Assembly: GCA_023266235.1 (NCBI GenBank)
Contig: JAHFRL010000009.1
Span: forward strand, 1,820 to 65,819
Length of the DNA: 64,000 nucleotides
Direction: 5' to 3'
Source: Betaproteobacteria bacterium
GTDB taxonomy: Bacteria > Pseudomonadota > Gammaproteobacteria > Burkholderiales > SG8-41
Below are positions 2,921-63,630 of this stretch, in pieces. The position numbers and the translations under genes are program-made. The notes beneath the pieces were generated by a model, which was not told where the DNA came from, did not search any database, and saw only the letters and a program-made list of their open reading frames with translations. How positions within the stretch are numbered: position 1 is the stretch's first letter; each line of letters starts with the position of its first letter.

Positions 2921-2997
2921 AACCGCCGATGAACGCGGATAAACGCCGATGAAAATCAAGAACAGGGAGTAATTCCCCTCTCGTCTCTCGCCGCTCA
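2921..2997. repeat. Junction repeat: 10-bp-period arm plus 7-bp-period arm
   Basis: aaccgccgat-gaacgcggat-aaacgccgat-gaaaatcaagaa, then ccctctcg-tctctcg-ccgctca, between convergent genes. Confidence 0.8.
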
Positions 2998-3237
2998 GCA
3001 GTGCCGCGCGCGCGGATGGGTATGCGCAAACGCGGCATACATCTGCCGCGCCCCCCGCAGCACGCCGGCCCGGAGCGCGCGCGCAGCCGCAGCGAACATC
3101 GCGGCAATTGCGGCATTGCGCGCGTGGTGCGCATCGCGGACGAGCCGCTCCATTCGGTGCGGGTCGCGCATGACTTCCTCGTAAGTAAGGACAGGACCTT
3201 GTTGCACAGCGGTCGGCGTTGCGTGTTGCCGATTCAT
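2995..3237 (-). CDS. Small hypothetical protein (80 aa) coupled to the DUF2917 gene
   Basis: MNRQHATPT...LVRDAHHARNAAIAAMF; AAGGAG RBS; ATGA overlap with the upstream stop. Confidence 0.65.
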   Translation of the reverse strand: MNRQHATPTAVQQGPVLTYEEVMRDPHRMERLVRDAHHARNAAIAAMFAAAARALRAGVLRGARQMYAAFAHTHPRARHC

Positions 3238-3626
3238 GATGGTCTCCTTGATTGCAGCAGGTAAAGGCGCGAGGTCGCGAGCCAGCGCGCGATTGCGCCT
3301 GGGTGCCGCGGCGCCGGCCGCATCACCAGCGCCGTGCGTTGAAGCCAGCGCTCCAGCATTCCGTCGTATCGCGGCACGGGCCGTGTCACCACGAGCGTGC
3401 CCGGGCCTTCCACGACGGTCACCAGCGTCACGCCGTCGCGGTTCACGGTGAAGTCCTCGCCGGCGCCCACCAAGTGGTCCGCACTGTCGCCTTCCTGCGT
3501 GATCCACAAGGTGCCGCGCAGGCTGCGCACCCGGGCACCGCGCGCGTCCGTGAGCGGCAGCGCCTCGTAGCGCCCGAGCTCGAACGGCTTGCCATAGCTC
3601 TTGAAAGCAGAATTCGCATGTTCCAT
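3234..3626 (-). CDS. DUF2917 domain protein
   Basis: GTLWITQEGDSADHLVGAGE motif; divergent from a LysR gene. Confidence 0.8.
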   Translation of the reverse strand: MEHANSAFKSYGKPFELGRYEALPLTDARGARVRSLRGTLWITQEGDSADHLVGAGEDFTVNRDGVTLVTVVEGPGTLVVTRPVPRYDGMLERWLQRTALVMRPAPRHPGAIARWLATSRLYLLQSRRPS

Positions 3627-3735
3627 AATGGATTCCTTTCCAGCATGTATGTCACGGCCGAGGGGCCGGCGCTGCATGCCTGCAAATATGCAATTTTCGC
3701 AGAATGCGGACAAACGATCATTTTGCGGGTTATGC

Positions 3736-3750
3736 ATGAGAAATACGCAT
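3736..3750. promoter_or_regulatory. Putative LysR recognition box (ATG-N9-CAT, T-N11-A)
   Basis: atgagaaatacgcat overlapping the LysR start in a divergent intergenic region. Confidence 0.45.
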
Positions 3751-4708
3751 GAATAAACGGCGCGATCTGCCCAATCTGGACCTGTTGCGGGGGTTCGAGG
3801 CCGCGGCGCGGCACCTGTCCTTCACGAAGGCGGGGACGGAACTCTTCCTTACCCAGTCGGCGATCAGCCGCCAGGTGCAGGCGCTTGAGCAGCAGCTCGG
3901 CGTGCCGCTATTTCAGCGCCGCACGCGCGCGCTGCTGCTGACCGACGCGGGCCAGCGCTACTACCGCGCGGTGAGCGAGACGCTGGCGCGGCTGCGCGAA
4001 GCGACGGCGCGGCTGGCCGCCGAGCAGGCTTCCGGCGCGCTCACCGTCACCTCCACGGTATCTTTCACCTCGCTATGGCTGGTGCCGCGGCTGGCGGATT
4101 TCCAGCGCCGCCATCCGGACATCACGGTGCGCATCGTTGCCGACAACACGCTGCAGGACCTGCAGCGCGAGCGGCTCGACGTGGCGGTCCGCTACACCAC
4201 CCGCCAGCGCGCGGGCGCGGGGGCGGTGAAACTGTTCGGCGAGCGCATGGTGCCGGTATGCAGCCCGCGGCTGCTCGCGCACGCGCCGCTCGAGCGCCCC
4301 GCCGACCTGGACAAATTCGTGCTGCTGCATTTCGACGACCTCGAGGGTCAGGCGCCTTGGCTGTCGTGGAACGTGTGGTTCGAGGTCATGCAGATGCAGC
4401 CGGTAAAGGGCGCCGGCGCACTGCGCTTCAGTCACTACGACCAGATGATCCGCGCCGCGATCGACGGCCAGGGCGTGGCGCTTGGGCGCGTGCCGCTGGT
4501 GGAAGAACAAATCCGCGTCGGCGCGCTGGCGACGCCGCTCAAGGCAAGCCGCTATGCGGCACCCGCGGCGGACCGCGCCTACTGGGTAATGGTGTCGCCG
4601 CTGGCGGCGGGACGACGCGAAGCCGCAACGTTCGTGGATTGGGTGCGCGAGCAGGCCGGTGCGCCGCCGCCGCAGGGCGATCAGGTGGCGGTCGATCTGA
4701 AAGGATGA
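3749..4708 (+). CDS. LysR family regulator, GcvA-like
   Basis: LRGFEAAARHLSFTKAGTELFLTQSAISRQV HTH; WLVPRLADF; GQGVALGR. Confidence 0.95.
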   Translation: MNKRRDLPNLDLLRGFEAAARHLSFTKAGTELFLTQSAISRQVQALEQQLGVPLFQRRTRALLLTDAGQRYYRAVSETLARLREATARLAAEQASGALTVTSTVSFTSLWLVPRLADFQRRHPDITVRIVADNTLQDLQRERLDVAVRYTTRQRAGAGAVKLFGERMVPVCSPRLLAHAPLERPADLDKFVLLHFDDLEGQAPWLSWNVWFEVMQMQPVKGAGALRFSHYDQMIRAAIDGQGVALGRVPLVEEQIRVGALATPLKASRYAAPAADRAYWVMVSPLAAGRREAATFVDWVREQAGAPPPQGDQVAVDLKG

Positions 4709-4780
4709 AGGATGAGGGATGAGCGATGAAGGATGAAAGGCTAGTCCTCTCACCTCTCCCCTCTCTCCTCTCGCCTCTCA
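4703..4780. repeat. Junction repeat: (GGATGAA)-type x5 arm plus (CCTCTCN) x5 arm
   Basis: ggatgaaggatgagggatgagcgatgaaggatgaa / cctctcacctctcccctctctcctctcgcctctca; each arm contains the stop of one convergent gene. Confidence 0.9.
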
Positions 4781-6184
4781 AGAACATTTCCTGCGGTCGA
4801 GCAAGCGCTTGATCTTTGAGGTCTGCGAGGTGCCCGTATATTGGTCGAGCCCGCCCTTAGCGGCCGGATTGACGGTGACGCGCACGCCAAGCACCTCCTT
4901 CATGCGCCGCTCGAGATCGGTCTTGACCGCCGCGCGATCCGCCGCCGGATCGATCACTTCGACCATCACCGTCATCTCGTCGGTTGCGGCCTCGCCCACG
5001 CGGTCGACGAAACAGAAAAACTCGCCATTGGTGCGGCGGTCGCCGGCCACCACCGCGCCGACCGCTTCGGGAAAGACATTCACGCCGCGCAGCTTCACCA
5101 TGTTGTCGCTGCGCCCGAAGATGCGCGCGAGCCGGCGCAGGGTGCCGCCGCACGCGCAGATTCCGGGAACGTAGGCCGAGATATCGTTCACATTGAAGCG
5201 TATCTGCGGGGCGCCGTACTTGTAGAGCGTGGTGATATACACGGTGCCCTGCTCTCCCTCGGCAAGAATGCGGCCGGACTCCGGATCGGCGATCTCGAGA
5301 ATGTAGGCGTCCTCCTGGACGTGCATGCCCGACTGGCGCTCGCATTCGGCCGCCATCATGCCGCTCTCATGCGTGCCGTACGCGTCGAAACACGGCGCGC
5401 CCCACAGGTCCTCGATCCGGCGCCGATCCTCCATGCCAAGATGCGTGCCGATGAGCCTGATGCCGAGGCTCTTCGGATCGATCCCCATCTCGTCTCTCGC
5501 CGTGAGCGCCATGTGCCGCAAATACGACGGGAAGCCGAGGATGACGCTGATGCCCCAAGCCTGCGCGATCTCGATCTGGCGGCGCGTCGGCGTGGTCGCG
5601 CCGCCGCCGGTCATGACCGGCACCGCGCCGGAATAACGCCACAACGCTTCGCGCGGCGCCGCCGCGCCGTTGGAAAGACCCAGCGCGTAAGTCACCAGCA
5701 CCATATCGCCGGGCCGAATTCCATGCAATGCGAAGCGGCGTCCGCCCATGATCGCCATGGTTTCGCGGTCCCGCGGCGCATAGAGCATCGGGCGCGGCAG
5801 TCCGGTCGTGCCGCCGCTCGTTTGCAGCACGAGCGGCATGCGCTTGCCGTCCGCCGGCGAAATTCCCATGAAATCGCCGAACGGCGGGTTGCGCTCGATG
5901 CTCGCGCGGATGTGGTGGACGTCGTACGGCGGGATTTTCTGCAGATCATCGAGCCCGCGGATGTCGCCGGGCTCCATCCCGGCAGCGCGCCAGTGGCGCT
6001 GGAAGAACGGGATCTCCCAGCCGCGCCGCATGGTCTCCAGGAACCGCCGTTCCTGCAACGTGCGCAGTTCATCCCGCGACACGCGGAAGGTAGTACGGAA
6101 ATAGTCCGGCGGCGGCGGAAACTCCCGCGCCAGTTCTTCGAAATCGAGCGCGCGCCAGTACCAGGGGATAGCTTCGGCGTGCAT
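4778..6184 (-). CDS. Phenylacetate-CoA ligase (PaaK)-like AMP-dependent ligase
   Basis: QTSGGTTGLP P-loop, DAYGTHE, GRSDNMVKLRGVNVFP; start MHAEAIPW. Confidence 0.85.
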   Translation of the reverse strand: MHAEAIPWYWRALDFEELAREFPPPPDYFRTTFRVSRDELRTLQERRFLETMRRGWEIPFFQRHWRAAGMEPGDIRGLDDLQKIPPYDVHHIRASIERNPPFGDFMGISPADGKRMPLVLQTSGGTTGLPRPMLYAPRDRETMAIMGGRRFALHGIRPGDMVLVTYALGLSNGAAAPREALWRYSGAVPVMTGGGATTPTRRQIEIAQAWGISVILGFPSYLRHMALTARDEMGIDPKSLGIRLIGTHLGMEDRRRIEDLWGAPCFDAYGTHESGMMAAECERQSGMHVQEDAYILEIADPESGRILAEGEQGTVYITTLYKYGAPQIRFNVNDISAYVPGICACGGTLRRLARIFGRSDNMVKLRGVNVFPEAVGAVVAGDRRTNGEFFCFVDRVGEAATDEMTVMVEVIDPAADRAAVKTDLERRMKEVLGVRVTVNPAAKGGLDQYTGTSQTSKIKRLLDRRKCS

Positions 6185-6192
6185 CCCGGATT

Positions 6193-6981
6193 TCACAGCA
6201 GGCTCGCGCGGCGGCCGCCGTCGACATGGAAAGTCGAGCCGGTGATATAGGCGGCATGCGGCGAGGCAAGGAACGCAACGAGGCCCGCGATCTCGTCCGG
6301 GGTGCCCACCCGGCGCAGCGGAATTTCCCGCGCCATCTCCGCCAGCATTTTCGCGTCGGGTTCGGCGTGCTTGCCGTCCGCGCCGAACACCGCGCCGAGC
6401 CGGCCGGTCGCGATGCGTCCCGGACAAATGGTGTTCACGGTGATGCCTTCCGCGGCGAGCTCCAGCGACAGCGTCTTCGCATAGCCGATGACACCGGCCC
6501 AGGTGGCGACCGACAGGCCGAAGCGCGGTAGCGGCTGCAGCGCGGAAAGCGCGGCGATGTTGATGATGCGTCCGCCGCCGGCCGCACGCAGATAGGGAAC
6601 CGCGAGCCGCGTGAGCCGCACCACGCTCATGAGGTTCTGCTGCACCGCCTTGTCCCACGCCGCATCGTCGAAGTCAAGCAACGCGCCCAGCGGCGGCGCG
6701 CCGTCGTTGTTCACGAGCACGTCGATACGGCCGAATTCCGCGAGCGTCGATTCGACGATGCGCGCGCAGTCCGCGGCGCGCCGGATATCCGCGGGCACCG
6801 CCAGCGCGTTGCCGCCGGTCTCGCCGGCGACGCGCTTCACGGCATCGCGCAACGGCTCCTCGCGGCGGGCGACCATCGCAACGCCCGCGCCTTCCCCCGC
6901 CAGCAATCGCGCAACCGCGTAGCCGATGCCCTGGCTCGCGCCGCCGACGATCGCGACCTTGTCCTTGAGCGAAAGATCCAT
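6193..6981 (-). CDS. SDR family oxidoreductase
   Basis: GGASQGIG, DVLVNN, VNTICPG, ITGSTFHVDGG. Confidence 0.9.
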   Translation of the reverse strand: MDLSLKDKVAIVGGASQGIGYAVARLLAGEGAGVAMVARREEPLRDAVKRVAGETGGNALAVPADIRRAADCARIVESTLAEFGRIDVLVNNDGAPPLGALLDFDDAAWDKAVQQNLMSVVRLTRLAVPYLRAAGGGRIINIAALSALQPLPRFGLSVATWAGVIGYAKTLSLELAAEGITVNTICPGRIATGRLGAVFGADGKHAEPDAKMLAEMAREIPLRRVGTPDEIAGLVAFLASPHAAYITGSTFHVDGGRRASLL

Positions 6982-9097: not shown

Positions 9098-9126
9098 TTG
9101 ACCCCGCGCCGTTACTCCTGTATAAG
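9098..9126 (+). promoter_or_regulatory. sigma70-type promoter of the cold-shock gene
   Basis: TTGACC-N17-TATAAG, about 140 nt upstream of the csp ATG. Confidence 0.6.
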
Positions 9127-9270
9127 GGGAGCGCAGGATTCTCAGGTAGTGATAATGGTTGGTCCGTTGTGGCCGCTTCGGCGGTACTCCTCAGGTCGTC
9201 GCTTTTCTCCTCCTTGAATTTCCCGCGTTCAGGCGCAAGCCTTTTTTTAATTTTTTCAGGAACAGCAGAC

Positions 9271-9477
9271 ATGAGTAACGGTACCGTTAAATGGTTCAAC
9301 GACGCCAAAGGCTTCGGCTTTATCACGCCCGATGATGGCGGCAAGGATCTCTTCGCGCACTTCTCGGCGGTTCAGGGCAGCGGCTTCAAAAGCCTGCGCG
9401 AAAACCAGAAGGTATCCTATGACGTCACGACCGGACCCAAAGGCGATCAAGCCGCCAACATCAAGCCGCTCGATTAA
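9271..9477 (+). CDS. cspA: Cold-shock protein
   Basis: [32 protein letters not shown] (RNP1/RNP2); true start at 9271. Confidence 0.95.
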
Positions 9478-9494
9478 CCAGCGCTTGCTGCAGG

Positions 9495-9522
9495 AAAAAG
9501 CCCGGGCGACCGGGCTTTTTTT
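9495..9522. terminator. Bidirectional intrinsic terminator
   Basis: aaaaagcccgg-gcga-ccgggcttttttt between convergent genes. Confidence 0.85.
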
Positions 9523-9954: not shown

Positions 9955-11004
9955 TCACTCGACTTTAAGCCTGGCCAGGCGGATCGCCTCGCCGAAGCGC
10001 GCGTATTCCGCATTGATGAATTTGGTGAATTCCGCGGGTGTGCTCGTCACCGGCTCGCCGCCCTGGCGCTCCAGCAGCTCGCGCGTGGCCGGGTTGCTGA
10101 TCACCCTGACGAGCGTCGCATACAGCTTGTCGAAGATCGGCCTGGGGACTCCTTTCGGCACCATCAGCCCGGACCAGCCCGTCGAGACATAACCCGGCAC
10201 GCCGGCCTCGCTGATGGTGGGAAGCTCCGGCGTAATCGACGAGCGCTGCTCGCCGCCGGTCGCCAGCGCGCGCAGCCGCCCCGACCGCACATGGGCGAGC
10301 ACCGCGGGTCCGGGTGCGATCGTGAACTGCGACTCGTTGCCCATCACCGCGATCAACGAGGCGCCGCCTTTGTAGGGCACGTGGTGCACCTCGATGCCGG
10401 TCGCGTGCGTGAACAGCACGCACGCGAGGTGGCTCTGGAAGCCGGAGCCGGCGTTCGACATGTTGAGCTTGCCCGGATTCGCCTTGGCGTAGGCGATCAA
10501 CTCCTTCACGCCATTGACGGGGAGGCTCGGGTGCACGACCAGCATGTTCTGCGTGACCGCGAACAGCGAAAGCGGCGCAAAATCGTTGACCGGATGATAG
10601 TTGAGCTTCTTGTAGATCTGCGGCGTGATCACCTGCATACCGGTCGAATTGATCAAGAGCGTGTAGCCGTCGGGCGCCGCGTGCGCGGCAAGTTCGGCGC
10701 CGATGATGCCGCCCGCGCCGCCGCGATTGTCGGATACGACCTGCTGACCCAGAGCCTCGCCGATGCGCACGCCCATCACCCGGGCCAGCGTGTCAACGGA
10801 AGTCCCGGTCGTGTTCGCGATGATGAGGCGTAGCGGCTTGCTCGGATAGGCGGCAGCGGTTTCGGCCGCCGTCGCCAGCCCCTGGGACAGGCAACACGCT
10901 GCGGCCGATGCCAACGCACCGCGGCACCAAGTGCCGAGTGCAGAGTGATGAGTGCAGAGTGATTTCAGTTCCGCGCTTTGCGCACCGTAATCTGCGATCT
11001 GCAT
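9955..11004 (-). CDS. Bug/TctC substrate-binding protein (start uncertain; repeat arm inside the N-terminus)
   Basis: YPSKPLRLII, DNRGGAGGIIG, PDGYT, HVPYKGG. Confidence 0.9.
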   Translation of the reverse strand: MQIADYGAQSAELKSLCTHHSALGTWCRGALASAAACCLSQGLATAAETAAAYPSKPLRLIIANTTGTSVDTLARVMGVRIGEALGQQVVSDNRGGAGGIIGAELAAHAAPDGYTLLINSTGMQVITPQIYKKLNYHPVNDFAPLSLFAVTQNMLVVHPSLPVNGVKELIAYAKANPGKLNMSNAGSGFQSHLACVLFTHATGIEVHHVPYKGGASLIAVMGNESQFTIAPGPAVLAHVRSGRLRALATGGEQRSSITPELPTISEAGVPGYVSTGWSGLMVPKGVPRPIFDKLYATLVRVISNPATRELLERQGGEPVTSTPAEFTKFINAEYARFGEAIRLARLKVE

Positions 11005-11080
11005 TTTTTCTTTCCTCCTCATCTTTTGTTTTTCACTATTCACTCTTCATTCCGCACTCTGCATTCATCACTCATCACCC
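10925..11080. repeat. 7-bp-period inverted-arm element
   Basis: aagtgcc-gagtgca-gagtgat-gagtgca-gagtga, AT-rich spacer, then cactatt-cactctt-cattccg-cactctg-cattcat-cactcat-cac. Confidence 0.85.
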
Positions 11081-11301
11081 TTTATTCTTCCCTGCGCGCC
11101 GCGCCCATTCTGCCGGTGCCGGCGATGCCGATTTTCAATTGTGCTCCCCGTACGGGATTTCCTTTGAGGTGTTAAGTTGACATGCGCCGCACGCCGAGTC
11201 AAATTAGCGCACCCCAGTCCAAAGCTGAACCGCAAAGGACGCGAACGGCCTCAAACTGAGACACCACCTATTGAGCATCACCTGACTCGGTGACAAAGTT
11301 C

Positions 11302-13728: not shown

Positions 13729-13806
13729 GCGATTGAGTGATTGGGTGATTGAGCGATTGACTTGAGAAGCAATTCTCAATCGCTCAATCACTGTTCACCC
13801 AATTAC
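13729..13806. repeat. 8-bp-period inverted-arm element
   Basis: gattgagt-gattgggt-gattgagc-gattga ... tcaatcgc-tcaatcac, between the SBP and permease genes. Confidence 0.85.
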
Positions 13807-22734: not shown

Positions 22735-23222
22735 GCGAAACTCTGTACCCGATCGCGGTCGAGGTCAACGGCGTGCAGCGCATGGCGCAAGTACCGGCGC
22801 GGCTCTCGCTCGTCGACTGGCTGCGCGAAGAATTGCGTCTGACCGGCACGCACGTCGGCTGCGAACACGGCATCTGCGGCGCGTGCTCGATCATGCTCGA
22901 CGGCGAGCCGGTCCGCTCGTGCCTCATGTATGCAGTGCAGGCGAACGGACACCGCGTGACCACGGTGGAAGGGCTCGGCAAGCCCGACGGATCGTTGAGC
23001 GTATTGCAGGACAGTTTCTGCCACCTGCACGGTCTGCAGTGCGGCTACTGCACGCCGGGCATGCTGATCGCGGCGCAGGGATTGCTCAACACCACGCCGC
23101 GCCCGACGGACGAGCAGATCCGCGAGGCGATCGGCGGCAACCTGTGCCGCTGCACCGGCTACCAGCAGATCGTGGACGCGGTGAAGCACGCCGCCGGGCG
23201 GCTCGCCGCGGCAAATAAGTGA
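22731..23222 (+). CDS. Mo-hydroxylase 2Fe-2S (small, CoxS-like) subunit
   Basis: GCEHGICGAC, SC, QCGYCTPG, CRCTGY. Confidence 0.95.
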   Translation: MSETLYPIAVEVNGVQRMAQVPARLSLVDWLREELRLTGTHVGCEHGICGACSIMLDGEPVRSCLMYAVQANGHRVTTVEGLGKPDGSLSVLQDSFCHLHGLQCGYCTPGMLIAAQGLLNTTPRPTDEQIREAIGGNLCRCTGYQQIVDAVKHAAGRLAAANK

Positions 23223-23239
23223 CTCAACTGCAACCCTTC

Positions 23240-23342
23240 GACGCAAAGTCGCAAAGACAATCAAGAGATACAAATCGACATCACGCATTACGTAGCCGAC
23301 ATTCATTCCTGCTTTCCTTTGCGGCTTTGCGCCTCTGCGTCA
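23240..23342. repeat. 8-bp-period inverted-arm element
   Basis: gacgcaaagt-cgcaaaga ... ctttgcgg-ctttgcgc-ctctgcgtc, between the S and L subunit genes. Confidence 0.8.
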
Positions 23343-23364
23343 AGGTCTTGGGGTTGATCCGGTC

Positions 23365-27542: not shown

Positions 27543-28646
27543 ATGACACATCTCGGAAAACAAAAACAACAGTTTGCCCCCGATGAACGCCGATGGACAC
27601 AGATAAGATCAAAGGCGCTGACGGTTTTTCCTGAGTCGTCTCGATTTTCATCGGCGTCAATCGGCGTTCATCGGCGGTTGCATTGGCTTTGGGGATTTTG
27701 CGCCGGCGCGGCGGCAGTGACAGTGGTGCAGGCAAGCGCATGGGCCCAGAGTTGGCCGACGAAAACGCTGCGGGTGGTCGTGCCGTTTACGGCCGGCAGC
27801 GCCACCGACATCACCGCGCGCCTGGTTGCCGAACGGCTCTCGGCGCAGCTCGGCCAGATCATCGTGGTCGAAAACCGCCCGGGCGCGGGAGGCACCATCG
27901 GCGTGGGAGTCGTCGCCAGGGCGGAACCCGACGGCTACACGATACTCGTGCACTCCTCCTCGTTTACCGTAACGCCGTCCACCTATCCCAACCAGCCGTA
28001 CGACACCGCGCGCGACTTCTCCGGCATCACGCCGCTCGCCAACCTGCCCAACGTGCTCGTGATCGCGCCGTCGAAAGGCCTGCGCTCGGTGAAGGAACTG
28101 GTGGCCGCCGCCAAGGCGAAGCCGGGCGCGCTGACCTACGCGTCCGCGGGCGCCGGCAGCGCAACGCAGCTCAACGCCGAACGCTTCCGTCTCGGCGCCG
28201 GATTCGAGGCGGTGCACGTGCCGTTCAAGGGTACGCCCGAAGCGCTCACGGAAATACTGACCGGGCGCGTGGATTATTACTTCTGTCCCGTGCTGTCGGT
28301 GCTGCAGTTCATCAAGGAAGGCAAGCTGCTCGCGCTGGCGGCCGGCAGCACCAAACGCTCATCGGCGCTGCCGGACCTGCTCACCACGCTCGAGGCGGGA
28401 ATCCCGAACTCGGACTACAACTTCTGGGTCGGCATGATCGTGCCCGCAAAAACCTCGCGCGACATCGTGGCGAAGCTGCACCAGCAGACGCTGCAAGCGC
28501 TGCAGGCGCCGGACATGAAGGAGCGCATGGCGAAACTCGGCGCCGAGCCGATGATCATGACGCCGGCGCAGTTCGACGCCTATATCCGCAACGAGATCGC
28601 CTCCAACGCGGGGCTCGTCAAGGCCGCCGCGATCAAGGTGAATTGA
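27543..28646 (+). CDS. Bug/TctC substrate-binding protein with repeat-derived N-terminus
   Basis: WPTKTLRVVVPFTAGSATD, PDGYT, HVPFKG; start uncertain. Confidence 0.9.
   Translation: MTHLGKQKQQFAPDERRWTQIRSKALTVFPESSRFSSASIGVHRRLHWLWGFCAGAAAVTVVQASAWAQSWPTKTLRVVVPFTAGSATDITARLVAERLSAQLGQIIVVENRPGAGGTIGVGVVARAEPDGYTILVHSSSFTVTPSTYPNQPYDTARDFSGITPLANLPNVLVIAPSKGLRSVKELVAAAKAKPGALTYASAGAGSATQLNAERFRLGAGFEAVHVPFKGTPEALTEILTGRVDYYFCPVLSVLQFIKEGKLLALAAGSTKRSSALPDLLTTLEAGIPNSDYNFWVGMIVPAKTSRDIVAKLHQQTLQALQAPDMKERMAKLGAEPMIMTPAQFDAYIRNEIASNAGLVKAAAIKVN
27576..27679. repeat. 10-bp-period inverted-arm element
   Basis: ccgatgaacg-ccgatggaca-cagat ... atcggcgtca-atcggcgttc-atcggcggtt. Confidence 0.9.
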
Positions 28647-28669
28647 ACCGCATGAGGAAGGAAAAAAGG

Positions 28670-29644: not shown

Positions 29645-29667
29645 CCAGGCAAAGTGGGGAATCTTTT

Positions 29668-29891
29668 GCCACAGAGGGTGCGGAGAACACCGAGAAAAGC
29701 AGCCCAAGCGCTCAACGCAGTGGACGCAGAGGACGCAGAGGTGCGCGGGGTAAGAATACGGGGGCGGTTTCAGAGCAGTGCACGAGGCTATACCTGGTTC
29801 GTGAGCCATCCTGGGTCGCGCTATTTCACAAAGACGTGTCTTGTCGGCTTTCCTCTGCGAGCCACCGCGTCCTCTGCGACCTCTGCATTGA
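29668..29891. repeat. 9-bp-period inverted-arm element with an extra arm
   Basis: ccacagagg-gtgcggaga-acaccgaga; acgcagtgg-acgcagagg-acgcagagg ... cctctgcga-gccaccgcgt-cctctgcga-cctctgcattga. Confidence 0.85.
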
Positions 29892-29964
29892 GAGTTTCAG
29901 CAACCGGTCTGCTGTCCTTGACGTAAGCGAGCATAATAGACGCGCAGATTGGAGGGGGGAGTGA

Positions 29965-30960: not shown

Positions 30961-30965
30961 ATGTG

Positions 30966-31654: not shown

Positions 31655-31675
31655 TCGATTTTCTGCCGATAAAGT

Positions 31676-31733
31676 GATCGGGTGAAGGGTGACAAATCAT
31701 AACGCCTCTCTCCTCTCGCCTCTCGCCTCTCGC
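31676..31733. repeat. 7-bp-period junction repeat with mismatched arms
   Basis: gggtgaa-gggtga ... gcctctc-tcctctc-gcctctc-gcctctc-gc directly before ATG 31734. Confidence 0.8.
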
Positions 31734-38684: not shown

Positions 38685-39167
38685 TCACTGCGGCCGCCGG
38701 GCCGATTTGGCCGCGACCACGATCTGGGTCTGCGTGACGATCGCAACCCGGCGCCGCCCGGAATTCCTGATCGTCGTCTGCCACACCATCGTGGTGCGGC
38801 CGATGTGCAATGGGATCGATACGGCCGTGAGCGCCGGCCCCGTGCCCGCGGCGAAAAAATTGGTCTTCGATTCGAGCGTCGCGGTGACATAGCCGGGCGG
38901 CAGATTGGCGATCGTGCCGGCGGCGCCGAGCGCATCCGCGAACGCCATGATGGCGCCGCCGTTCACGCGGCCGTTGCGATTGATGTGCAACGGTTTGATG
39001 CGCATCTCGGCCACCACTTTTTTGCGGGTGAGCGAGAGCAGGCGCACGCCGAGCGCGCGCGAAGTCGCGCCGCGCACAACCTCGCGGGCGCCCGCCACGC
39101 CGTTCGGCCTGACCTTGCTTTGAGTTTTGGTGCGTTGCTTCAAGCGGGGTCTCTTCTCATTCATCAT
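38685..39167 (-). CDS. PaaI-family hotdog thioesterase
   Basis: NGRVNGGAIMAFAD, TLESKTNF, HIGRTTMVW. Confidence 0.85.
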   Translation of the reverse strand: MMNEKRPRLKQRTKTQSKVRPNGVAGAREVVRGATSRALGVRLLSLTRKKVVAEMRIKPLHINRNGRVNGGAIMAFADALGAAGTIANLPPGYVTATLESKTNFFAAGTGPALTAVSIPLHIGRTTMVWQTTIRNSGRRRVAIVTQTQIVVAAKSARRPQ

Positions 39168-39174
39168 TCATCAC
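39156..39174. repeat. Single 7-bp-period arm overlapping the PaaI start
   Basis: Minus strand gtgatgaatgatgaatgag contains ATG ATG. Confidence 0.55.
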
Positions 39175-39178
39175 TGGT

Positions 39179-40009
39179 TCACGCTTTCCACCCCAGCCAC
39201 TCGCACACGCCGCGGCCCATGATCCATTCCTTATCTGCAGCGCTGAGCCACGGGATTTCTTCCGTGAACAAGGTGACGTGCTGGCGATACGGGATCGGCG
39301 AGCGCGACAGATCGGTGCCCCAGAACAGGCGCTTGGGGCCGAACGCGTCGTAGGCCTGGCGGAGGTATCCGTGCAGCGAGCGATACGGATACGTGTCCGT
39401 CGAGTAGCACGGCAGCGCGCTCGCCTTCGCCGCGACGTTGGGGCGCTTGGCGATCGCCAACAACAGGTCGAACTCGCGGAACGCCGCCTCGTCCTTCTTC
39501 GTGCTCGAGAGCGCGAGGTGGTCCATCACGAGCTTGAGGCCCGGGTAGCGCTGCGCGACGCGGTCGATCAGGTGCACCATCGAATGCGGTACCAGCACGT
39601 AGACCGGCACGCCGGCTTTCTCCGCCTCCGCCCACACCCAGTCCATATGGCCTTCGGTCAGCAGCGGCGCGAGGATCGGCGTATGGAAGGTAAAGCGCAG
39701 CCCGAGCATGCCGGGCTGCTTGCGCCAAGCGGCAAGCGATCCGCGCGCGCCCGGCGCCGCCGGATCGAGCCGGCCCATGGTGGCGAAACGCCCCGGGTGG
39801 GCGAGTGCGGCTGCGCTGGCGAGGTCATTGCGGTCGCCCTCCCACGACGGCGGCACGATCACGACGCGATCGACGCCGGCCGCGTCCATTTCGCGCAGAA
39901 GGTCGTCCGCGCTCAGCGGCACAGGTCTTTGCGGTGCCGCCCGCTGCGGCCACGGCCGCTCGGGCGTATTGGCGCCCCAGATGTGCACTTGCGAATCAAC
40001 GATCAGCAT
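39179..40009 (-). CDS. Amidohydrolase family protein (lactonase-like)
   Basis: VDSQVHIW, VMDHL, AFGPKRLFWGTD. Confidence 0.88.
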   Translation of the reverse strand: MLIVDSQVHIWGANTPERPWPQRAAPQRPVPLSADDLLREMDAAGVDRVVIVPPSWEGDRNDLASAAALAHPGRFATMGRLDPAAPGARGSLAAWRKQPGMLGLRFTFHTPILAPLLTEGHMDWVWAEAEKAGVPVYVLVPHSMVHLIDRVAQRYPGLKLVMDHLALSSTKKDEAAFREFDLLLAIAKRPNVAAKASALPCYSTDTYPYRSLHGYLRQAYDAFGPKRLFWGTDLSRSPIPYRQHVTLFTEEIPWLSAADKEWIMGRGVCEWLGWKA

Positions 40010-46990: not shown

Positions 46991-47099
46991 ATGAACGGTA
47001 TCGCCGCGGCGAGCGGGGGATCGACCCTTCGCATGGACGACGGGGGCATGCGCGATGAGTGACGGGGAACACTCCCCCACACCCATCCCGCCTCACCCC

Positions 47100-47879
47100 T
47101 CACTGCTTGTACGACGGATCGAGCCTGTCGAGCATGCGCAGCAGCGCCCGCCACTCGCCTTTCTTCTCCTGGTAGCCGGGGCGCTCGAACTGGCGCGCAA
47201 CCTTTTCGGCGATTGCGGGCGGCGCAATGCGCAGCTTCGCGCCGCCGGCCAGCGCGCTGATCTGCGCCTGGCATGCGCGCTCGAGATAGTACATGTAATC
47301 GAAAGCCTGGCGCACGGTGGTGCCGCACGCGAGCAGGCCGTGATTGCGCAGAATCATCGTCATGCGGCTGCCGAGATCGCGGACCAGGCGCTGCTGCTCG
47401 TCGAGGTCGAGCGCCACCCCTTCATAATCGTGGTAAGAAACGTTGCCCGTCAGCCGCATCGCATGCTGCGAGATCGGCAGCAGACCCTGCTCCTGGGCCG
47501 CAACGCCGATGCCGGCGGCGGTATGCGTGTGCATCACGCAGTTGATCTCGGCGCGGGCGCGGTGCACGGCGCTGTGGATTACGTAGCCGGCCTGATTGAT
47601 CCCCAGGCCCGTCGGGTCGTCGACGATCTCGCCGTCGAGCGTGACCTTGACCAGATTCGACGCACGGATTTCATCCCACATCAGGCCGAAGGCGTTGATC
47701 AGGAAATGATGATCGGGACCGGGCACGCGCGCCGAGATGTGCGTGTAGATCAGGTCAGTCATGCGGAAGTAAGCCGCAGCGCGATAACACGCAGCGAGGT
47801 CGACACGCACTTCCCATTCATCGGCGCTGACGCGCTCCCTGACGGGCGTTTCGGCCAGCCTGCGGACCTTGGAACTCAT
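47100..47879 (-). CDS. Class II aldolase/adducin family protein
   Basis: HISAR, IHSAVH, MHTHT, LRNHG. Confidence 0.9.
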   Translation of the reverse strand: MSSKVRRLAETPVRERVSADEWEVRVDLAACYRAAAYFRMTDLIYTHISARVPGPDHHFLINAFGLMWDEIRASNLVKVTLDGEIVDDPTGLGINQAGYVIHSAVHRARAEINCVMHTHTAAGIGVAAQEQGLLPISQHAMRLTGNVSYHDYEGVALDLDEQQRLVRDLGSRMTMILRNHGLLACGTTVRQAFDYMYYLERACQAQISALAGGAKLRIAPPAIAEKVARQFERPGYQEKKGEWRALLRMLDRLDPSYKQ

Positions 47880-55034: not shown

Positions 55035-56018
55035 ATGTTGAACGCCGCAATTTACGGCATCGGGCGCTGGGGCGGCCGGCTGGTTGATTCAGTGAAAGCA
55101 AGCGACAAGATCCGCATCGTCAAGGGGATTTCCCGCAATCCCGACAAGCACCGCGAATTCTCCGCGAAAACCGGCATTCCGGTCGTCTCCTCGTATGCGG
55201 ACGTGCTCAAAGACCCGCAAATCGACGCCGTCGTGCTCGCCACGCCGCACTCGCTGCACCACGGGCATATCGTGGCCGCAGCCAGGGCCGGCAAGCATGT
55301 GTTCTGCGAGAAACCGCTCACGCTGACGCGCGCTACCGCCGAGTCGGCGGTGGCTGCCTGCCGCGCGGCGGGCGTGACGCTGGGGCTGGGTTTTAACCGC
55401 AGACATGTGCCGGCGTCCCTGGAGATGATGCGCCGGATTGACGCCGGCGAAATCGGCGAGGTACTGCACCTCGAGGGACAGCATTCCGGGCCCACCGGCT
55501 ATCGGCTCAAAGCGGGCGACTGGCGGGCAACCCGGTCCGAGTCCCCCGGCGGCGGCATGACGGCACGCGGCATTCACGCCCTCGATTCGATGATCCACAT
55601 CGCCGGCCTGGTGAGTTCGGTCTATGCGTTCAGCGGGAAACGCAAGCTGCCTGCGGACATCGACATGGACGACACCACTTCGCTGCTGCTGAAATTCTCG
55701 GGCGGCGCCACCGGCTATCTGGCCACGGTCTTTGTCACCGGCGAATTGTGGCGGGTGCATGTGTTCGGCACCAAGGGCTGGCTCGAGATGCGCGGCGACA
55801 CCGAACTCGTGGCGTGCGCTCTGGAAGGAAAGCCGGAGCGCATCACGCTGCCGGCGATCGACAGGGAGCAGGCGACGCTCGAGGCGTTCGCCGCTACCGT
55901 GGCCGCCAAAAAGCCATGCATGGTGCCGCCCGAGCAGGCGGTCAACGGCATTGCCGTGCTCGAAGCAATCGTGGCGTCGGCCGCCAGCGGCAGCCCGGTC
56001 CGGATCGATCAGCCGTGA
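55035..56018 (+). CDS. Gfo/Idh/MocA oxidoreductase
   Basis: GIGRWG, DAVVLATPHSLH, GKHVFCEKP, GIHALD. Confidence 0.9.
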   Translation: MLNAAIYGIGRWGGRLVDSVKASDKIRIVKGISRNPDKHREFSAKTGIPVVSSYADVLKDPQIDAVVLATPHSLHHGHIVAAARAGKHVFCEKPLTLTRATAESAVAACRAAGVTLGLGFNRRHVPASLEMMRRIDAGEIGEVLHLEGQHSGPTGYRLKAGDWRATRSESPGGGMTARGIHALDSMIHIAGLVSSVYAFSGKRKLPADIDMDDTTSLLLKFSGGATGYLATVFVTGELWRVHVFGTKGWLEMRGDTELVACALEGKPERITLPAIDREQATLEAFAATVAAKKPCMVPPEQAVNGIAVLEAIVASAASGSPVRIDQP

Positions 56019-56041
56019 GGTTGCAAGACCGGGAATACGCA

Positions 56042-56884
56042 ATGACCGCGAACCCGCATTTCGCCACGGTGGGCGATCTCGCCATCCACTACGATCTGGC
56101 TGACTACACCGACCCGTGGCGAACGGACGAGCCGGCAACGTTCCTGCTCTACCCCGGCTATTGCCGGAACATCGAATTCTGGCGCGCGTGGGTGCCGTTG
56201 CTGGGGCGCGACTATCGCGTGTTGAGAATGGACGCCCGCGGCTATGGCGAGACGGGCAAGCCGCCGCCCGGCTCGCCGCTGACCACGGACATGCTGGCCG
56301 ATGACGCCATCGGCCTCATGGATGTGCTGGGCATACAACGCGCGCACTGGGTCGGCGAATCGACCGGCGGCGCCGTGGGCCTGGTCGCGGCACTCAATCA
56401 TCCGGAGCGCATCGCCTCGATCACGCTGTGCAACACGGCTGCCAGGATGGGCGACGAGACCGTATCCACCTATGCGATCGGCGAGGCGAACCAGGGCGCG
56501 GCGATCGAGAAATACGGCGTCGCCGAGTGGTGCCGCAGAACATTGCAGTACCGGATGGATGTGAGCCACGCGCCCGCGGGACTCGCCGAATTCGTGCCCA
56601 GGGAGATGGCGAAGACCCCGGCGCATATCGCGGTGGCCGCGTTCAAACTTTTCTCCACCGTGAACCTGATGCCGCGCCTGCCGAAAGTCAAGGCGCCCAC
56701 GTTGCTGATCGTCGGCAGCAAATGCACCGAGCGCCGCAAGCGGCACATGGCGGAGATGCGCGACAAGCTGCAGCGCGCGAAGCTGGTTGAGCTCGAGGGT
56801 TACGATTACGGCATCCACTTCCTCGCCCCGGATGCGGTGGTTGCCGAGATCCGCAAGTTTCTGCGAGAAACCAAGGACCAATGA
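56042..56884 (+). CDS. Alpha/beta-hydrolase-fold protein
   Basis: DARGYG, GESTGG nucleophile elbow, APTLLIVG. Confidence 0.85.
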   Translation: MTANPHFATVGDLAIHYDLADYTDPWRTDEPATFLLYPGYCRNIEFWRAWVPLLGRDYRVLRMDARGYGETGKPPPGSPLTTDMLADDAIGLMDVLGIQRAHWVGESTGGAVGLVAALNHPERIASITLCNTAARMGDETVSTYAIGEANQGAAIEKYGVAEWCRRTLQYRMDVSHAPAGLAEFVPREMAKTPAHIAVAAFKLFSTVNLMPRLPKVKAPTLLIVGSKCTERRKRHMAEMRDKLQRAKLVELEGYDYGIHFLAPDAVVAEIRKFLRETKDQ

Positions 56885-57999
56885 AGCCGCCGATGGACGC
56901 AGATAGAGTCAAAAACAAATACCGAAACGTCACCTATAGCGAGCACAGAAAAATGATTGCTTCGAAATTTTCTGCATTTTTATTTTCCTCTGCGGTTCGA
57001 TTCTTGATTTTCATCGGCGTTTATCGGCGTTTATCGGCGGTTACAGTTTTCGCTGCGCTGCTGTGCGGGGCCGCGCTTCACGTCGCATCGGCGCAGCCCT
57101 ACCCCACCCGGCCGATCAGGCTGATCGTCCCGTATCCGCCCGGCGCCAGCACCAACGACATCCTTGGCCGCGCGCTCGCGGTGCGCCTGTCCGAGGCGTT
57201 GGGACAGCAAATCGTCGTGGACAACCGCTCGGGCGCCAGCGGCAACATGGGTTCCGAGCTCGTGGCGAAATCGACGCCCGATGGTTACACGCTGCTGATC
57301 GGCGTCGCCGGCCCGCTGGCGGTCGGCCCGAGCGTGTATGCCAAGCTCGGCTACGATCCGATCAAGGACTTGGCACCCATCGCGATGTTTGCGTCGATAC
57401 CGTACGTGCTGGTCGTCAACCCCTCGGTGCCGGCGACCAACATCAAGGAACTGATCGCGCTCGCCAAAGCCAAACCGGGCCAGCTGAACTTCGCGTCGAG
57501 CGGCAACGGCGGCTCGCCGCACCTGTGCGGGGAACTGTTCAAGACCATGGCCGGCATCGACATCGTGCATATCCCGTACAAGGGCGCCGCCATCGCGATG
57601 ATCGACGTCTTGAGCGGGCAGATACCCATGATTTGCACTGGCGCGACGGCGCTCGCCGCGCACATCAAGGCCGGCCGGGTGCGCCCGCTCGGCGTGGCGA
57701 CGCTCAAGCGCACGGCGCTGATGCCGGAGTTGCCGACCATCAGCGAGCAGGGACTGACCGGTTTCGAGGTCAACTCGTGGAGCGGCCTGCTCGCGCCGGC
57801 AAAGACGCCGGAGCCGATCATCCGCCGCCTCTACGAAGCGGTGGCAAAGATCGTCAACAGCGACGACATGAAAAACTTTCTCGCGAACGTCGGTGCCGAG
57901 CCGGCGCTGATGGACCCGCGCGAGTTCGGCGCCTACCTTAAAGCCGATACCGCCAAGTGGGCGAAGGTAGTGAAAGCGGCGAACCTGAAGGTGGACTAG
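56881..57999 (+). CDS. Bug/TctC substrate-binding protein with repeat-derived N-terminus (start 56881 or 56953)
   Basis: YPTRPIRLIVPYPPGASTND, PDGYT, HIPYKG. Confidence 0.92.
   Translation: MKPPMDADRVKNKYRNVTYSEHRKMIASKFSAFLFSSAVRFLIFIGVYRRLSAVTVFAALLCGAALHVASAQPYPTRPIRLIVPYPPGASTNDILGRALAVRLSEALGQQIVVDNRSGASGNMGSELVAKSTPDGYTLLIGVAGPLAVGPSVYAKLGYDPIKDLAPIAMFASIPYVLVVNPSVPATNIKELIALAKAKPGQLNFASSGNGGSPHLCGELFKTMAGIDIVHIPYKGAAIAMIDVLSGQIPMICTGATALAAHIKAGRVRPLGVATLKRTALMPELPTISEQGLTGFEVNSWSGLLAPAKTPEPIIRRLYEAVAKIVNSDDMKNFLANVGAEPALMDPREFGAYLKADTAKWAKVVKAANLKVD
56886..57042. repeat. 10-bp-period inverted-arm element
   Basis: ccgccgatgg-acgcagat, AT-rich spacer, then ttcttgattttc-atcggcgttt-atcggcgttt-atcggcggtt. 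Confidence 0.88.
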
Positions 58000-58018
58000 A
58001 GTGATTCAGCGATTGAGT
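57999..58018. repeat. Short 8-bp-period arm (same unit as 13729)
   Basis: gagt-gattcagc-gattgagt directly after the Bug stop. Confidence 0.5.
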
Positions 58019-58086
58019 ACCCGTCATTGCAGCAAATCGCCTTTGGCGGCCGCTGAACTCAAACGCTTAGGCGTTCGATTTCGTTG

Positions 58087-62418: not shown

Positions 62419-62453
62419 TTCTAATATATTGAACATAATTCAAGTATACTGAA
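62419..62453. promoter_or_regulatory. Two tandem TTC-N9-GAA palindromes (putative IclR operators)
   Basis: TTCtaatatattGAA (62419-62433) and TTCaagtatactGAA (62439-62453), 20 bp apart. Confidence 0.6.
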
Positions 62454-62502
62454 TACATCTTAGGTGAGAGGTTGTGGCGGGTCAAGGGGAAACTCGGTTT
62501 CA

Positions 62503-63306
62503 ATGGCACAAACGATTTCTAATGGGGGTACATCGGGGCATAAGCGGCTGATGGCGAAGACGTTTTTGAAAGGATTGGATTTGTTGGAGACGCTGGCGAA
62601 CGCCGGGCGGCCCCTAAGCCTGTCGGAGATTTCAACGCTGCTCGAGGCGCCGAAGCCTAGCGTGCATTTCCTCCTCTCGGCGCTGACCGCACGGGGATAC
62701 GCCGAGCAGGACCCGGTCACGAAACGATATTTCCTTACCCTCAAGCTCTGGGAAATCGGCACGAAGGTGCTCGGACGCCTTGATCTGCGGCGTCTGGCAT
62801 CGGCCCATCTTGCGTCCCTGGCCGACGCCACCTCCGAAACCGTCAATCTCGCCATCCTCGATCACGACGACGTGCTGTACCTCGAGAAAATTGATAGCCC
62901 CATGCCCGTGCGCGCCTATACACCCGTAGGTCAACGCGCGCCCGCATACTGCACGGCCACAGGCAAGGCGCTAATTGCGTACGAGTCGGAGGAAATCATC
63001 AGCCGCGCGACGCGCAATATGAAGGCGCATTCACCGACCACGATTACCAGTGCCCATGCGCTGAGGAAGGAATTGGAGCGCGTGAAGAAAATGGGGTACG
63101 CGATTACTCGAGGAGAGTGGCAGGAGTCGGTCCGTGGGGTGGCAGTGCCGATCTGGGATAGCACAGGTAAAGTCGTCGCTGCCGTCGGCGTCTACGGACC
63201 TGCGTCTCGTCTCCCTCCGAAAACACTGCGCAAACTGGCGCTCAAGGTCAAGAAAACCGGAGCTGCAATATCAAGCGCTTTGGGTTATCGAAATCTCACG
63301 CCTTGA
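62503..63306 (+). CDS. IclR family regulator
   Basis: KGLDLLE, LSEIS HTH, ETVNLA, VGQRAPAYCTATGKAL, GVAVPI. Confidence 0.93.
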   Translation: MAQTISNGGTSGHKRLMAKTFLKGLDLLETLANAGRPLSLSEISTLLEAPKPSVHFLLSALTARGYAEQDPVTKRYFLTLKLWEIGTKVLGRLDLRRLASAHLASLADATSETVNLAILDHDDVLYLEKIDSPMPVRAYTPVGQRAPAYCTATGKALIAYESEEIISRATRNMKAHSPTTITSAHALRKELERVKKMGYAITRGEWQESVRGVAVPIWDSTGKVVAAVGVYGPASRLPPKTLRKLALKVKKTGAAISSALGYRNLTP

Positions 63307-63309
63307 GGA

Positions 63310-63462
63310 AGAAGATCGCCAAGCGACCGCCGCGACGGCCCTCGCTTGCTGCGAAGAATTAGTACCCCCTGCCGGAAATGCCAGCTCGACGGGTGACGTC
63401 GCGATTACCCATGGCCAGTCAGAAAAGGCGTACTTTGCCGAGGCAGGCAACAAAAGTAACAT
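63310..63462 (-). pseudogene. Possible degenerate 5' fragment of a Bug gene
   Basis: Strong GAGGAGG RBS; AFSDWP..PVELAFPAGGT..ARAVA resembles the Bug N-terminal motif. Confidence 0.35.
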
Positions 63463-63591
63463 TATCTACCTCCTCACTGCGTAGCTTTATGAACTCCACC
63501 CGAGTGCCCGCTTCGGATCATTTCCAAAAATTGGCGTTCGGACACGGCTGGTCAGATCAAGCCGGAACTGCTACACCAGAAGCGCCAAAAG

Positions 63592-63630
63592 CGTGAGGAG
63601 TGAACGAGTGAAGGAGTGAAGGAGTAACGA
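63592..63630. repeat. 8-bp-period arm
   Basis: gtgag-gagtgaac-gagtgaag-gagtgaag-gagtaac. Confidence 0.8.

Follow-up and report, generated by a model that had tools for sequence, protein, structure and literature searches.

Tandem-repeat elements at gene junctions of an uncultured Burkholderiales genome and their probable kinship with small-gene cassettes

Repeat elements in the window

The stretch analysed here, referred to as the window (64,000 nucleotides, G000:C83:1820-65819), belongs to G000, a metagenome-assembled genome (MAG) of an uncultured Burkholderiales bacterium, and carries at its gene junctions a family of short-period tandem-repeat elements, whose arms consist of 2-7 degenerate 7-10 bp units in tandem and where, in complete copies, a purine-rich arm is followed by a spacer and then by the reverse complement of the units. 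These elements are probably gene-less copies, resembling MITEs (miniature transposable elements with inverted repeats), of cassettes in which such arms surround a gene for a four-helix-bundle or a GxxExxY protein. The assembly comprises 4.63 Mb in 259 contigs, with 62.9% G+C, 98.9% completeness and 7% contamination. G000 stands alone in its genus, its nearest relatives are uncultured Betaproteobacteria/Burkholderiales MAGs, and the best DNA matches to the window among public runs came from groundwater metagenomes. Gene coordinates were taken from a frame-discriminating codon model of our own, which called 4331 genes (85.8% coding).

The original prediction had placed such elements at about 14 loci and had given complete copies one layout of units, spacer and reverse complement. 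Tandem Repeats Finder (TRF) detected short-period arrays at 11 of the 14, whereas it was silent at 2921, 11231 and 57999, where only two or three degenerate units can be made out by eye. The layout was borne out by folding at seven loci (10925, 13729, 23240, 27576, 29668, 47088 and 56886), with 47088, a short hairpin with a weak array alongside, counted on its fold alone. The other seven depart from it: 2921, 4703 and 31676 each hold two differing adjacent arrays that are not complementary to one another, 39156, 57999 and 63592 are solo arrays, and 11231 is a two-unit remnant of a left end. The elements are as follows, where z is the score of the RNA fold against 100 dinucleotide shuffles per locus and dG the folding free energy in kcal/mol.

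2918..2992 (locus 2921): left end of the 10-mer family, AACCGCCGATGAA CGCGGATAAA CGCCGATGAA, recognised by eye and beginning 1-4 nt past the stop of gene 1871-2917; a complementary right arm is lacking, and the next feature is a pyrimidine heptamer array unrelated to it (CCTCTCG TCTCTCG); fold no better than shuffles (z +0.9); terminus common to a GxxExxY cassette
4701..4780 (locus 4703): AAGGATG x5.3 then CCTCTCN x5, adjacent non-complementary heptamer arrays (TRF 4701-4737 and 4746-4780, period 7; z -1.6) between convergent genes 3749-4708 (+) and 4778-6196 (-), each array purine-rich on the sense strand of the gene that precedes it
10925..11080: heptamer hairpin GAGTGCA/GAGTGAT with a 77-nt spacer (TRF 10930-10961 and 11041-11077, period 7/14; dG -47.1, z -5.3)
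11228..11246 (locus 11231): left-end remnant of the 9-mer family, AACCGCAAAGGACGCGAA, two units without partner, recognised by eye (z +0.3); its terminus is that of the GxxExxY cassette L087
13729..13812: 8-mer hairpin, GATTGAGN x4, a 15-nt loop and the reverse complement (TRF 13731-13760, period 8; dG -42.0, z -7.8), occupying the whole gap between genes 12550-13722 and 13819-14676
23238..23345 (locus 23240): 8-mer hairpin GACGCAAAG TCGCAAAG ... CTTTGCGG CTTTGCGC (TRF right arm only, 23316-23339, period 8; z -2.0), dG -27.3 on the + strand and -42.1 on the - strand, flanked by genes 22731-23222 and 23365-25767
27574..27680 (locus 27576): complete 10-mer-family element CCGATGAACGCCGATGGA ... 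TCATCGGCGTCAATCGGCGTTCATCGGCGG (TRF 27650-27676, period 10; dG -53.1, z -6.1) between genes 26527-27540 and 27717-28646; covered with zero differences by a 358-nt contig of sequencing run X3
29700..29892 (locus 29668): 9-mer element, ACGCAGAGG x3, a 110-nt spacer and CCTCTGCGN x3.8 (TRF 29715-29741 and 29852-29886, period 9; dG -81.8, z -2.1), with outer inverted CTCAACGCAG / CTGCATTGAG, downstream of gene 28643-29644
31664..31733 (locus 31676): GGGTGAW x3 (purine) then non-complementary CGCCTCT x4.4 (TRF 31703-31733, period 7; z -1.0), the pyrimidine array running up to the ATG of gene 31734-32594
39150..39185 (locus 39156): solo heptamer array TGATGAA on the minus strand (TRF 39157-39173, period 7, 2.4 copies; no fold), directly after the stop of minus-strand gene 39179-39922
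47050..47105 (locus 47088): short hairpin with a weak CCCNTCA array (TRF 47075-47103, period 7, 68% matches; z -4.4) between convergent genes 45776-46990 (+) and 47100-47879 (-)
56884..57047 (locus 56886): complete 10-mer-family element GCCGCCGATGGACGCAGATAGAG ... TCATCGGCGTTTATCGGCGTTTATCGGCGGTT (TRF 57013-57043, period 10; dG -51.4, z -3.6), beginning at the stop of gene 56015-56884, with its right arm overlapping the possible 5' end of the next open reading frame (ORF)
57999..58070: about 2.5 units of GATTGAGN with a weak partner, past the stop of gene 57004-57999, recognised by eye without a TRF call (z -1.1)
63598..63630 (locus 63592): solo 8-mer array GAGTGAAS x4.2 (TRF, period 8; no fold), abutting the stop of minus-strand gene 63632-65338 and pyrimidine-rich on the sense strand of that gene, which breaks the polarity rule given below

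An Rfam search of the window returned no family matching any of the elements. The window itself contains no four-helix-bundle or GxxExxY gene. In four DNA runs, searched as short Logan contigs, no unit-number variant and no presence/absence joint was found at the arrays among the matches listed. Among the public runs listed as containing the window, none was of RNA.

Abundance and unit families across the genome

The arrays are real, occur far beyond chance and form a system. When 2481 intergenic regions were compared with five dinucleotide-preserving shuffles, 440 arrays of period 7 were observed against 8-20 in the shuffles, with 80 against 2-4 for period 14, 86 against 12-24 for period 8, 118 against 10-22 for period 9 and 77 against 16-28 for period 10, so that the comparison with shuffled intergenic DNA proposed with the original prediction came out strongly in its favour. 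After removal of redundant calls, TRF arrays of period 7 came to 403 between genes and 207 within coding DNA, which makes them 11.6 times denser in intergenic DNA; for period 14 the factor is 11.3, for period 8 it is 3.1, for period 10 it is 2.7 and for period 9 it is 1.1. The heptamer units are of about 90 different kinds, dominated by AAGGGTG (49 arrays), AATCCTC (46), AGAGGCG (33), AATGGTG (21) and AGGATCG (17), with AAACGTG in 14, and the median copy number of the arrays is 3.9. Alongside the heptamers, roughly 60 arrays belong to a 9-mer family (AAGGACGCN) and roughly 30 to a 10-mer family (CGCCGATRAA). The count of arrays rich in either purines or pyrimidines is about 670, among which at least 119 complementary pairs were found.

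It had also been stated that the elements never lie inside enzyme cores, which holds in the window but fails genome-wide, where in-frame arrays are found in variable loops or linkers of PolA, ValRS, UvrA and other proteins. In-frame arrays within conserved genes were seen at C205:36207-36293, C115:8533-8562, C12:6738-6766, C164:19033-19059 and C72:13216-13244, 13988-14014 and 15278-15307. The linker of DNA polymerase I is a whole AGGATCG hairpin in translation (LEDRGSRIEYRGDSAAVKLSQSSILNPQSY), a variable loop of ValRS is taken up by a CGCCTCA array, and further in-frame arrays lie in a UvrA-like gene, in a long gene read by eye as Mfd and in another read as TypA. Orthologues of PolA and ValRS have a variable segment of similar length at the position of the array.

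Polarity, placement and folding

Two arrays were taken as a pair where their units are reverse complements with at most one mismatch and the arrays lie at most 300 bp apart. This gave 119 pairs, with a spacer of 37 bp at the median. Of these, 115 lead with the purine-rich arm, and since this order is unchanged when the other strand is read, it reflects a real constraint and not an orientation effect. An alignment test of higher sensitivity, in which shuffled flanks gave no partner, found the complement of purine arrays downstream in 120 of 337 cases and upstream in one, and the complement of pyrimidine arrays upstream in 111 of 331 and downstream in none. Scored by intergenic region, 137 show the purine-then-pyrimidine (RY) pattern and none a plain YR pattern. 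As a consequence of the purine-first order, purine arrays follow the 3' ends of genes on the sense strand and pyrimidine arrays precede the 5' ends, a rule that was obeyed in 274 + 244 cases and broken in 69 + 56. The purine bias also extends into the left half of the spacers (66 vs 28, p 3e-4), and spacers and arms have a G+C content of 52-53%, below that of the genome.

This strand asymmetry, together with the GGG runs of some families (AATAGGG, AAGGGTG), might be ascribed to regulators acting through non-B DNA, as G-quadruplex or triplex, as has been suggested for the GGGAATC arrays of Xanthomonas. Such an account is highly unlikely here: most of the abundant units (AATCCTC, AGAGGCG, AATGGTG, AGGATCG, AAACGTG) lack a G3 tract, a complementary partner favours a duplex stem, and the link to cargo genes described below would go unexplained.

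Flanking genes were available for 110 pairs, of which 95 lie between co-directional, 12 between convergent and 3 between divergent genes, and array density per kb is 0.37 in divergent gaps as opposed to 1.41 in co-directional and 1.04 in convergent ones. The purine arm starts a median of 5 nt after the stop (interquartile range -2 to 11) and the pyrimidine arm ends a median of 20 nt before the next start, a distance that is approximate with so crude a gene caller; on these distances, the elements fill intercistronic gaps almost exactly. Their stems average -45 kcal/mol across 105 nt. Folding energies do not favour the sense strand (44 vs 50, Wilcoxon p 0.58), so that selection acting on RNA gains no support. 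Strong stems near stop codons would also be expected of intrinsic transcription terminators. That the elements are such terminators is nevertheless very improbable, as a U-tract (at least six T in the 10 nt past the stem, sense strand) was found in 0 of 95 co-directional hairpins, which are thus not canonical terminators, and most hairpins lie inside apparent operons, 20 nt before the next start.

The two arms also differ in their stop codons. Two or more frames are stopped in the purine arms of 70 of the 119 pairs, and all three in 35, where shuffles would give 7.6, whereas the arms read on the opposite strand contain no stop in 110 of 119. Of the stops, TGA is by far the commonest, with 1193 occurrences to 171 of TAA and 147 of TAG. 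Because periods of 7, 8 and 10 are coprime to 3, one stop per unit suffices to close all three frames.

Genes enclosed by the arms in G000

The only PF05635 gene in the genome (four-helix bundle, '23S rRNA intervening sequence (IVS) protein'), at C236:28394-28708, lies inside AGGATYG heptamer arms, and the only two PF13366/TIGR04256 (GxxExxY, PD-(D/E)XK nuclease-like) genes, at C39:5511-5861 and C162:20550-20891, both lie within matched arms; these are the kinds of gene that the original prediction had named for testing. The C236 cassette runs from gcTAG directly into GATTGAGGATCGAGGAGTGAGGATTGAGG, then through the ORF to CCTCAATCCTCGATCCTCAATCCTCGATCCTGCCCC and directly into ATG, where the TAG is the stop of ruvA and the ATG the start of ruvB, so that it sits exactly between the two. 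Around the C39 gene the arms are built of 9-mers, carry the terminus AAAGTCTTGAACCGCAAAGGACGC and show a duplicated right end, and those around the C162 gene are built of 10-mers (AACCGCCGATAAACGCCGAT...) and show repeated ends. The C39 cassette has two right ends (L087 1870-2015), and the C162 cassette has two left and three right ends (L086 1420-1960). These duplications suggest repeated or abortive end formation. The four-helix-bundle '23S rRNA IVS' proteins are related to Avd, a protein of diversity-generating retroelements. Among solved structures, Xanthomonas campestris XCC0516 (2gsc, E 9.7e-27) comes nearest to the four-helix-bundle protein of G000, and the GxxExxY protein found no match among PDB sequences.

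A screen for genes between arms (gaps of 300-6000 bp) gave 23 candidates, among which only C39 and C236 are true cassettes. Most of the 23 were rejected as neighbouring elements around ordinary genes, such as those for L10, an SdhB-like protein and a Bug-family binding protein.

In the 9-mer and 10-mer families, gene-bearing and gene-less copies share their termini. The terminus AACCGCCGAT of the C162 cassette, with which the 10-mer family begins, is common to the 10-mer window loci 2921, 27576 and 56886, and AACCGCAAAGGACGC of the C39 cassette is also present at window locus 11231. The AGGATYG heptamer family is bounded by GC, AGGAT...ATCCT, GC. In the 9-mer family, 26 complete copies share the termini A(A/C)AGCYTNGCCGC(NAAGGACGC)n ... 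GCGGCNNRGCTKT, and genome-wide, with these copies included, 50 left and 39 right ends of the family were found. The flanks of the 26 copies are unrelated to one another, and their interiors match neither each other nor any other place, except for short matches to nested arrays of different families in 6 of the 26. Copies nested within one another were also observed.

Intergenic palindromes in high copy number after genes recall repetitive extragenic palindromic (REP) sequences and REP doublets forming hairpins (REPINs), which would be mobilised by a REP-associated tyrosine transposase (RAYT) of the Y1 type. The original prediction had listed RAYT-type genes among possible partners, and this did not hold up, as the Y1 transposase profile (PF01797) gave 0 matches in G000, while the same search matched 6 of 14 control genomes. 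The arms are moreover tandem 7-10 bp units, not palindromic themselves, and not single 20-40 bp palindromes, and no GTAG or CGTC head was noticed by eye, a formal search for such heads not having been made. A REP/REPIN origin is therefore extremely improbable. A G+C-rich REP-like hairpin (CCCTCTCCCCCGTTACCGGGGGAGAGGG then GGGTGAGGGGG) was seen nested in the spacers of several heptamer elements of the GTGAAGG family, examples being C205:7265, C205:23060, C69:10660, C149:7108, C77:20258, C115:20527 and C222:1776.

Cargo loci and insertion sites across the order

In a survey of 201 genomes sampled from the order, G000 and one unpublished genome (G026) included, PF05635 was found in 53 and PF13366 in 32. 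For the cargo loci, the left flank was aligned to the reverse complement of the right flank with a cut-off score of at least 28, and L115, from the unpublished G026, was excluded. Inverted arms were found at 23 of 29 four-helix-bundle loci, 20 of them with a purine-rich left arm, and at 26 of 31 GxxExxY loci, 25 purine-first and one pyrimidine-first, whereas they were absent from all 27 controls, which had ruvA at the centre, excluded L145 and reached a score of 27 at most. An earlier periodicity filter, too strict for degenerate 8-10-mers, had found arms at 19 of 29 and 12 of 31 loci and was replaced by this score test with a period estimate. According to that estimator, which is crude, the arms have period 7 at 21 of the 23 armed four-helix-bundle loci, and the period is never 7 at the 26 armed GxxExxY loci (8 in eight, 9 in three, 10 in two, 11 in one and 12 without a period call). 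The units of cargo arms vary between genomes, and some are those of families that are gene-less in G000 (GTGAAGG in L105, GTGAGGC in L100).

Filled and empty orthologous sites were sought for the window's own loci without success, the four same-family genomes being too distant (best identity 23-61%, mostly paralogues), and for this reason the ruvA-ruvB junction and the loci of relatives were compared instead. Among 30 ruvA loci, two without ruvB and L145 (unpublished) being excluded, an ATGA overlap (spacer -4) joins ruvA to ruvB in 5 of the 26 other genomes, the same-family G055 included, while in G000 the two are 409 bp apart and enclose the cassette. Further ruvA-ruvB junctions hold arrays without a gene, purine followed by pyrimidine (L134, L143), or only a pyrimidine array (L132), or small genes of another kind. 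At the junction of window genes ending at 29644 and starting at 31734, a GGGATTG hairpin lies in L017 between the stop of the orthologue of window gene 28643-29644 and the ATG of an amidohydrolase, while in L003, L013, L014 and L019 the orthologous gap is at most 30 bp or the genes overlap. From these filled and empty junctions, mobility of the elements may be inferred.

The ruvA-ruvB junction is also a hot spot for small inserts of different kinds, with other small ORFs in L137, L150 and L154 and two ORFs in L158 that look by eye like a nucleotidyltransferase/HEPN pair. In G057, ruvA (C1:466970-467542) has a four-helix-bundle gene (C1:466064-466351) close upstream.

Origin of the elements

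As the same arms surround two families of tiny genes, the window elements look like stripped-down copies of cassettes, and it is probable that they are gene-less, MITE-like copies of tandem-repeat-armed four-helix-bundle and GxxExxY cassettes. The heptamer loci would carry arms of the four-helix-bundle type and the 9- and 10-mer loci arms of the GxxExxY type, with the 8-mer loci grouped with the latter by period alone. The behaviour of a non-autonomous element, as originally proposed, is thereby supported, and the arm-cargo units look like a little-described insertable gene cassette. No published description of the arm-cargo link was found in the literature searched, which lacks most subscription journals, and none of the papers found to name GxxExxY deals with repeats.

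A different origin would be that of microsatellite hairpins born in the host, where slippage in place builds the arrays, the resulting stem between cistrons protects or partitions operon mRNA, and small genes settle there. Stems of REP sequences and bacterial interspersed mosaic elements (BIMEs) protect or partition operon mRNA in this manner. Such an origin would suit the separate homogenisation of the arms of one element, the lack of a detected target duplication or transposase, the unique interiors, the solo state of two thirds of the arrays and the depletion between divergent genes. It is nonetheless unlikely, given that conserved non-repeat termini recur at no fewer than 26 unrelated sites, that identical termini are found on gene-bearing and gene-less copies, that the arm period follows the cargo family over many genera, and that the purine-first order is strict, copies are nested and folding has no advantage on the sense strand.

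Several observations weigh against descent of the window loci from cassettes. No copy-and-paste event was observed directly, and no target-site duplication of at least 3 bp was seen by eye in the 26 9-mer copies, whose A/T-rich ends could hide one of 1-2 bp. The unrelated interiors of gene-less copies hold no recognisable remnant of the cargo genes, and the window's heptamer unit families have no gene-bearing copy in G000. More than 10 heptamer families stand against one four-helix-bundle gene, which makes a sequence-specific service in trans doubtful. G000, at its completeness of 98.9% and contamination of 7%, yielded neither a transposase, of the Y1 type or otherwise, nor a reverse transcriptase; repeats and mobile genes often go unassembled in MAGs. 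The arms of one element are separately homogenised, for example with GGATCGA throughout the left arm and the complement of GGATTGA throughout the right, which implies that in-place slippage also shapes the arrays. To these are added the arrays without a complementary partner (217 of 337 purine and 220 of 331 pyrimidine arrays), those without any stop codon (223 of 668, a third, with the whole 9-mer family among them), the lack of a folding preference on the sense strand and the crudeness of the gene caller.

If the loci are gene-less cassette copies, the handful of bases separating a stop codon from the following start may be where the elements insert, or the only place where they survive. An element would be tolerated there by virtue of a leading arm that is rich in TGA on either strand, often in three frames, and a trailing arm that is stop-free; a stop-rich leading arm and a stop-free trailing arm would close incoming frames and leave outgoing frames open, and no damage would result. 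This account fails for the third of the arrays that lack any stop, the 9-mer family included. The transcribed stem of about 100 nt would probably be cut by RNase III, by analogy with ORF-bearing 23S rRNA intervening sequences. For the making of copies, the GxxExxY nuclease is the only candidate enzyme.

A further and more tentative step, which must be considered doubtful, is that the arms are the working sites of the cargo proteins, where an Avd-like pentamer would read a 7-nt register and the GxxExxY nuclease one of 8-10 nt, and where both, with host repair, would form an undescribed class of mobile element that uses neither transposase nor reverse transcriptase. The arrays might then be laid down at insertion, by reiterative copying onto both 3' ends of a break, which would explain both the invariant purine-first order and the separately homogenised arms. 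In that case the heptamer repeats, whose excess in bacterial genomes has long been noted, would stem from these cassettes.

The dependence of period on cargo and the strict purine-first order are in any case testable constraints on the mechanism. Should the arms be the handles of a mobile cassette, hundreds of intergenic spacers would be relics of invasion and not regulatory DNA, and annotators should treat them accordingly. The findings connect three puzzles, namely the unexplained heptamer excess in many bacteria, the inverted arrays of Xanthomonas and two very large families of tiny genes without a known role.

Comparison with known systems

The nearest parallel is found in Xanthomonas, where, in the accessible text of Rehm et al. 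2015 (PMC4692102), GGGAATC arrays are reported in numbers of 186 and 183 per genome, mostly with about four units, and include 70-75 convergent inverted pairs. The arrays are rare between divergent ORFs and are transcribed, with no function identified; the G-rich strand lies within 50 bp after stops (sense) or before ORFs (antisense), the arrays are not at the same genes in sister species, and their one unit type is read as a G-quadruplex motif (PMC4692102). The elements of G000 are like these, as far as that text describes them, in having heptamers of about four units, a purine/G-rich strand after stops, convergent inverted pairs and rarity between divergent genes. They differ from them in comprising more than 10 heptamer families as well as 8-, 9- and 10-mer families that have defined non-repeat termini, in their demonstrated association with two cargo families, and in that most of the abundant units in G000 lack GGG. 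The authors state that an association with mobile elements was not found, and a term search of the main text returned no XCC0516, 23S or four-helix (PMC4692102). In supplementary file 2 of that paper, array #15 lies six nt after XCC0517 and overlaps the start codon of XCC0516, which places the arm-cargo link within the data of Rehm et al.

In Coxiella burnetii, ORF-bearing 23S rRNA intervening sequences are described in the accessible text of Warrier et al. 2016 (PMC4990558) as selfish elements that RNase III excises. As in that description, an S23p/PF05635 gene lies here within a stem-forming inverted repeat, which holds for the gene-bearing cassette and not for the gene-less window copies; unlike those sequences, which sit in helix 45 of 23S rRNA, cassettes and gene-less copies lie between protein-coding genes. 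MITEs resemble the elements in being short, non-coding and present in many copies, with conserved terminal inverted repeats, which the elements also carry, and with gene-bearing relatives that have the same ends. The likeness ends at the target-site duplication, which was not seen here, at the unrelated interiors, and at the parents, which carry PF05635 or PF13366 genes and no known transposase.

[quoted passage not shown] REP sequences are defined, in the accessible part of PMC3733652, as a single 20-40 bp imperfect palindrome with a GTAG or CGTC head, and while REP, BIME and REPIN sequences are likewise extragenic palindromes after genes and within operons, they differ in that the arms here are tandem arrays. 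CRISPR repeats are 23-47 bp long with unique spacers of similar length, in contrast to contiguous units of 7-10 bp. Cyanobacterial short tandemly repeated repetitive (STRR) sequences and the TAACTGA repeats of Beggiatoaceae (PMC4679880) are alike in being abundant, gene-oriented intergenic heptamer direct repeats with an unexplained origin. According to the accessible text of MacGregor 2015 (PMC4679880), the TAACTGA sets are nearly all direct (one inverted among 170) and lie upstream of start codons.

Other features of the window

The sole Rfam match in the window is the cspA thermoregulator RF01766 at 9125-9522 (+), with 84.7 bits against a gathering score of 78, upstream of a small ORF at 9271-9477. 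In many relatives, the two genes on either side of 29645-31733 adjoin or overlap; here about 2.1 kb separates them, and this stretch contains the 9-mer element, two arrays, gene 30133-30960 (+) and, at 30966-31609, two small genes on the minus strand. Beside these arrays, a period-11 repeat (TCACAATGTA x2.5), possibly an operator, lies at 31629-31654, upstream of gene 31734-32594.

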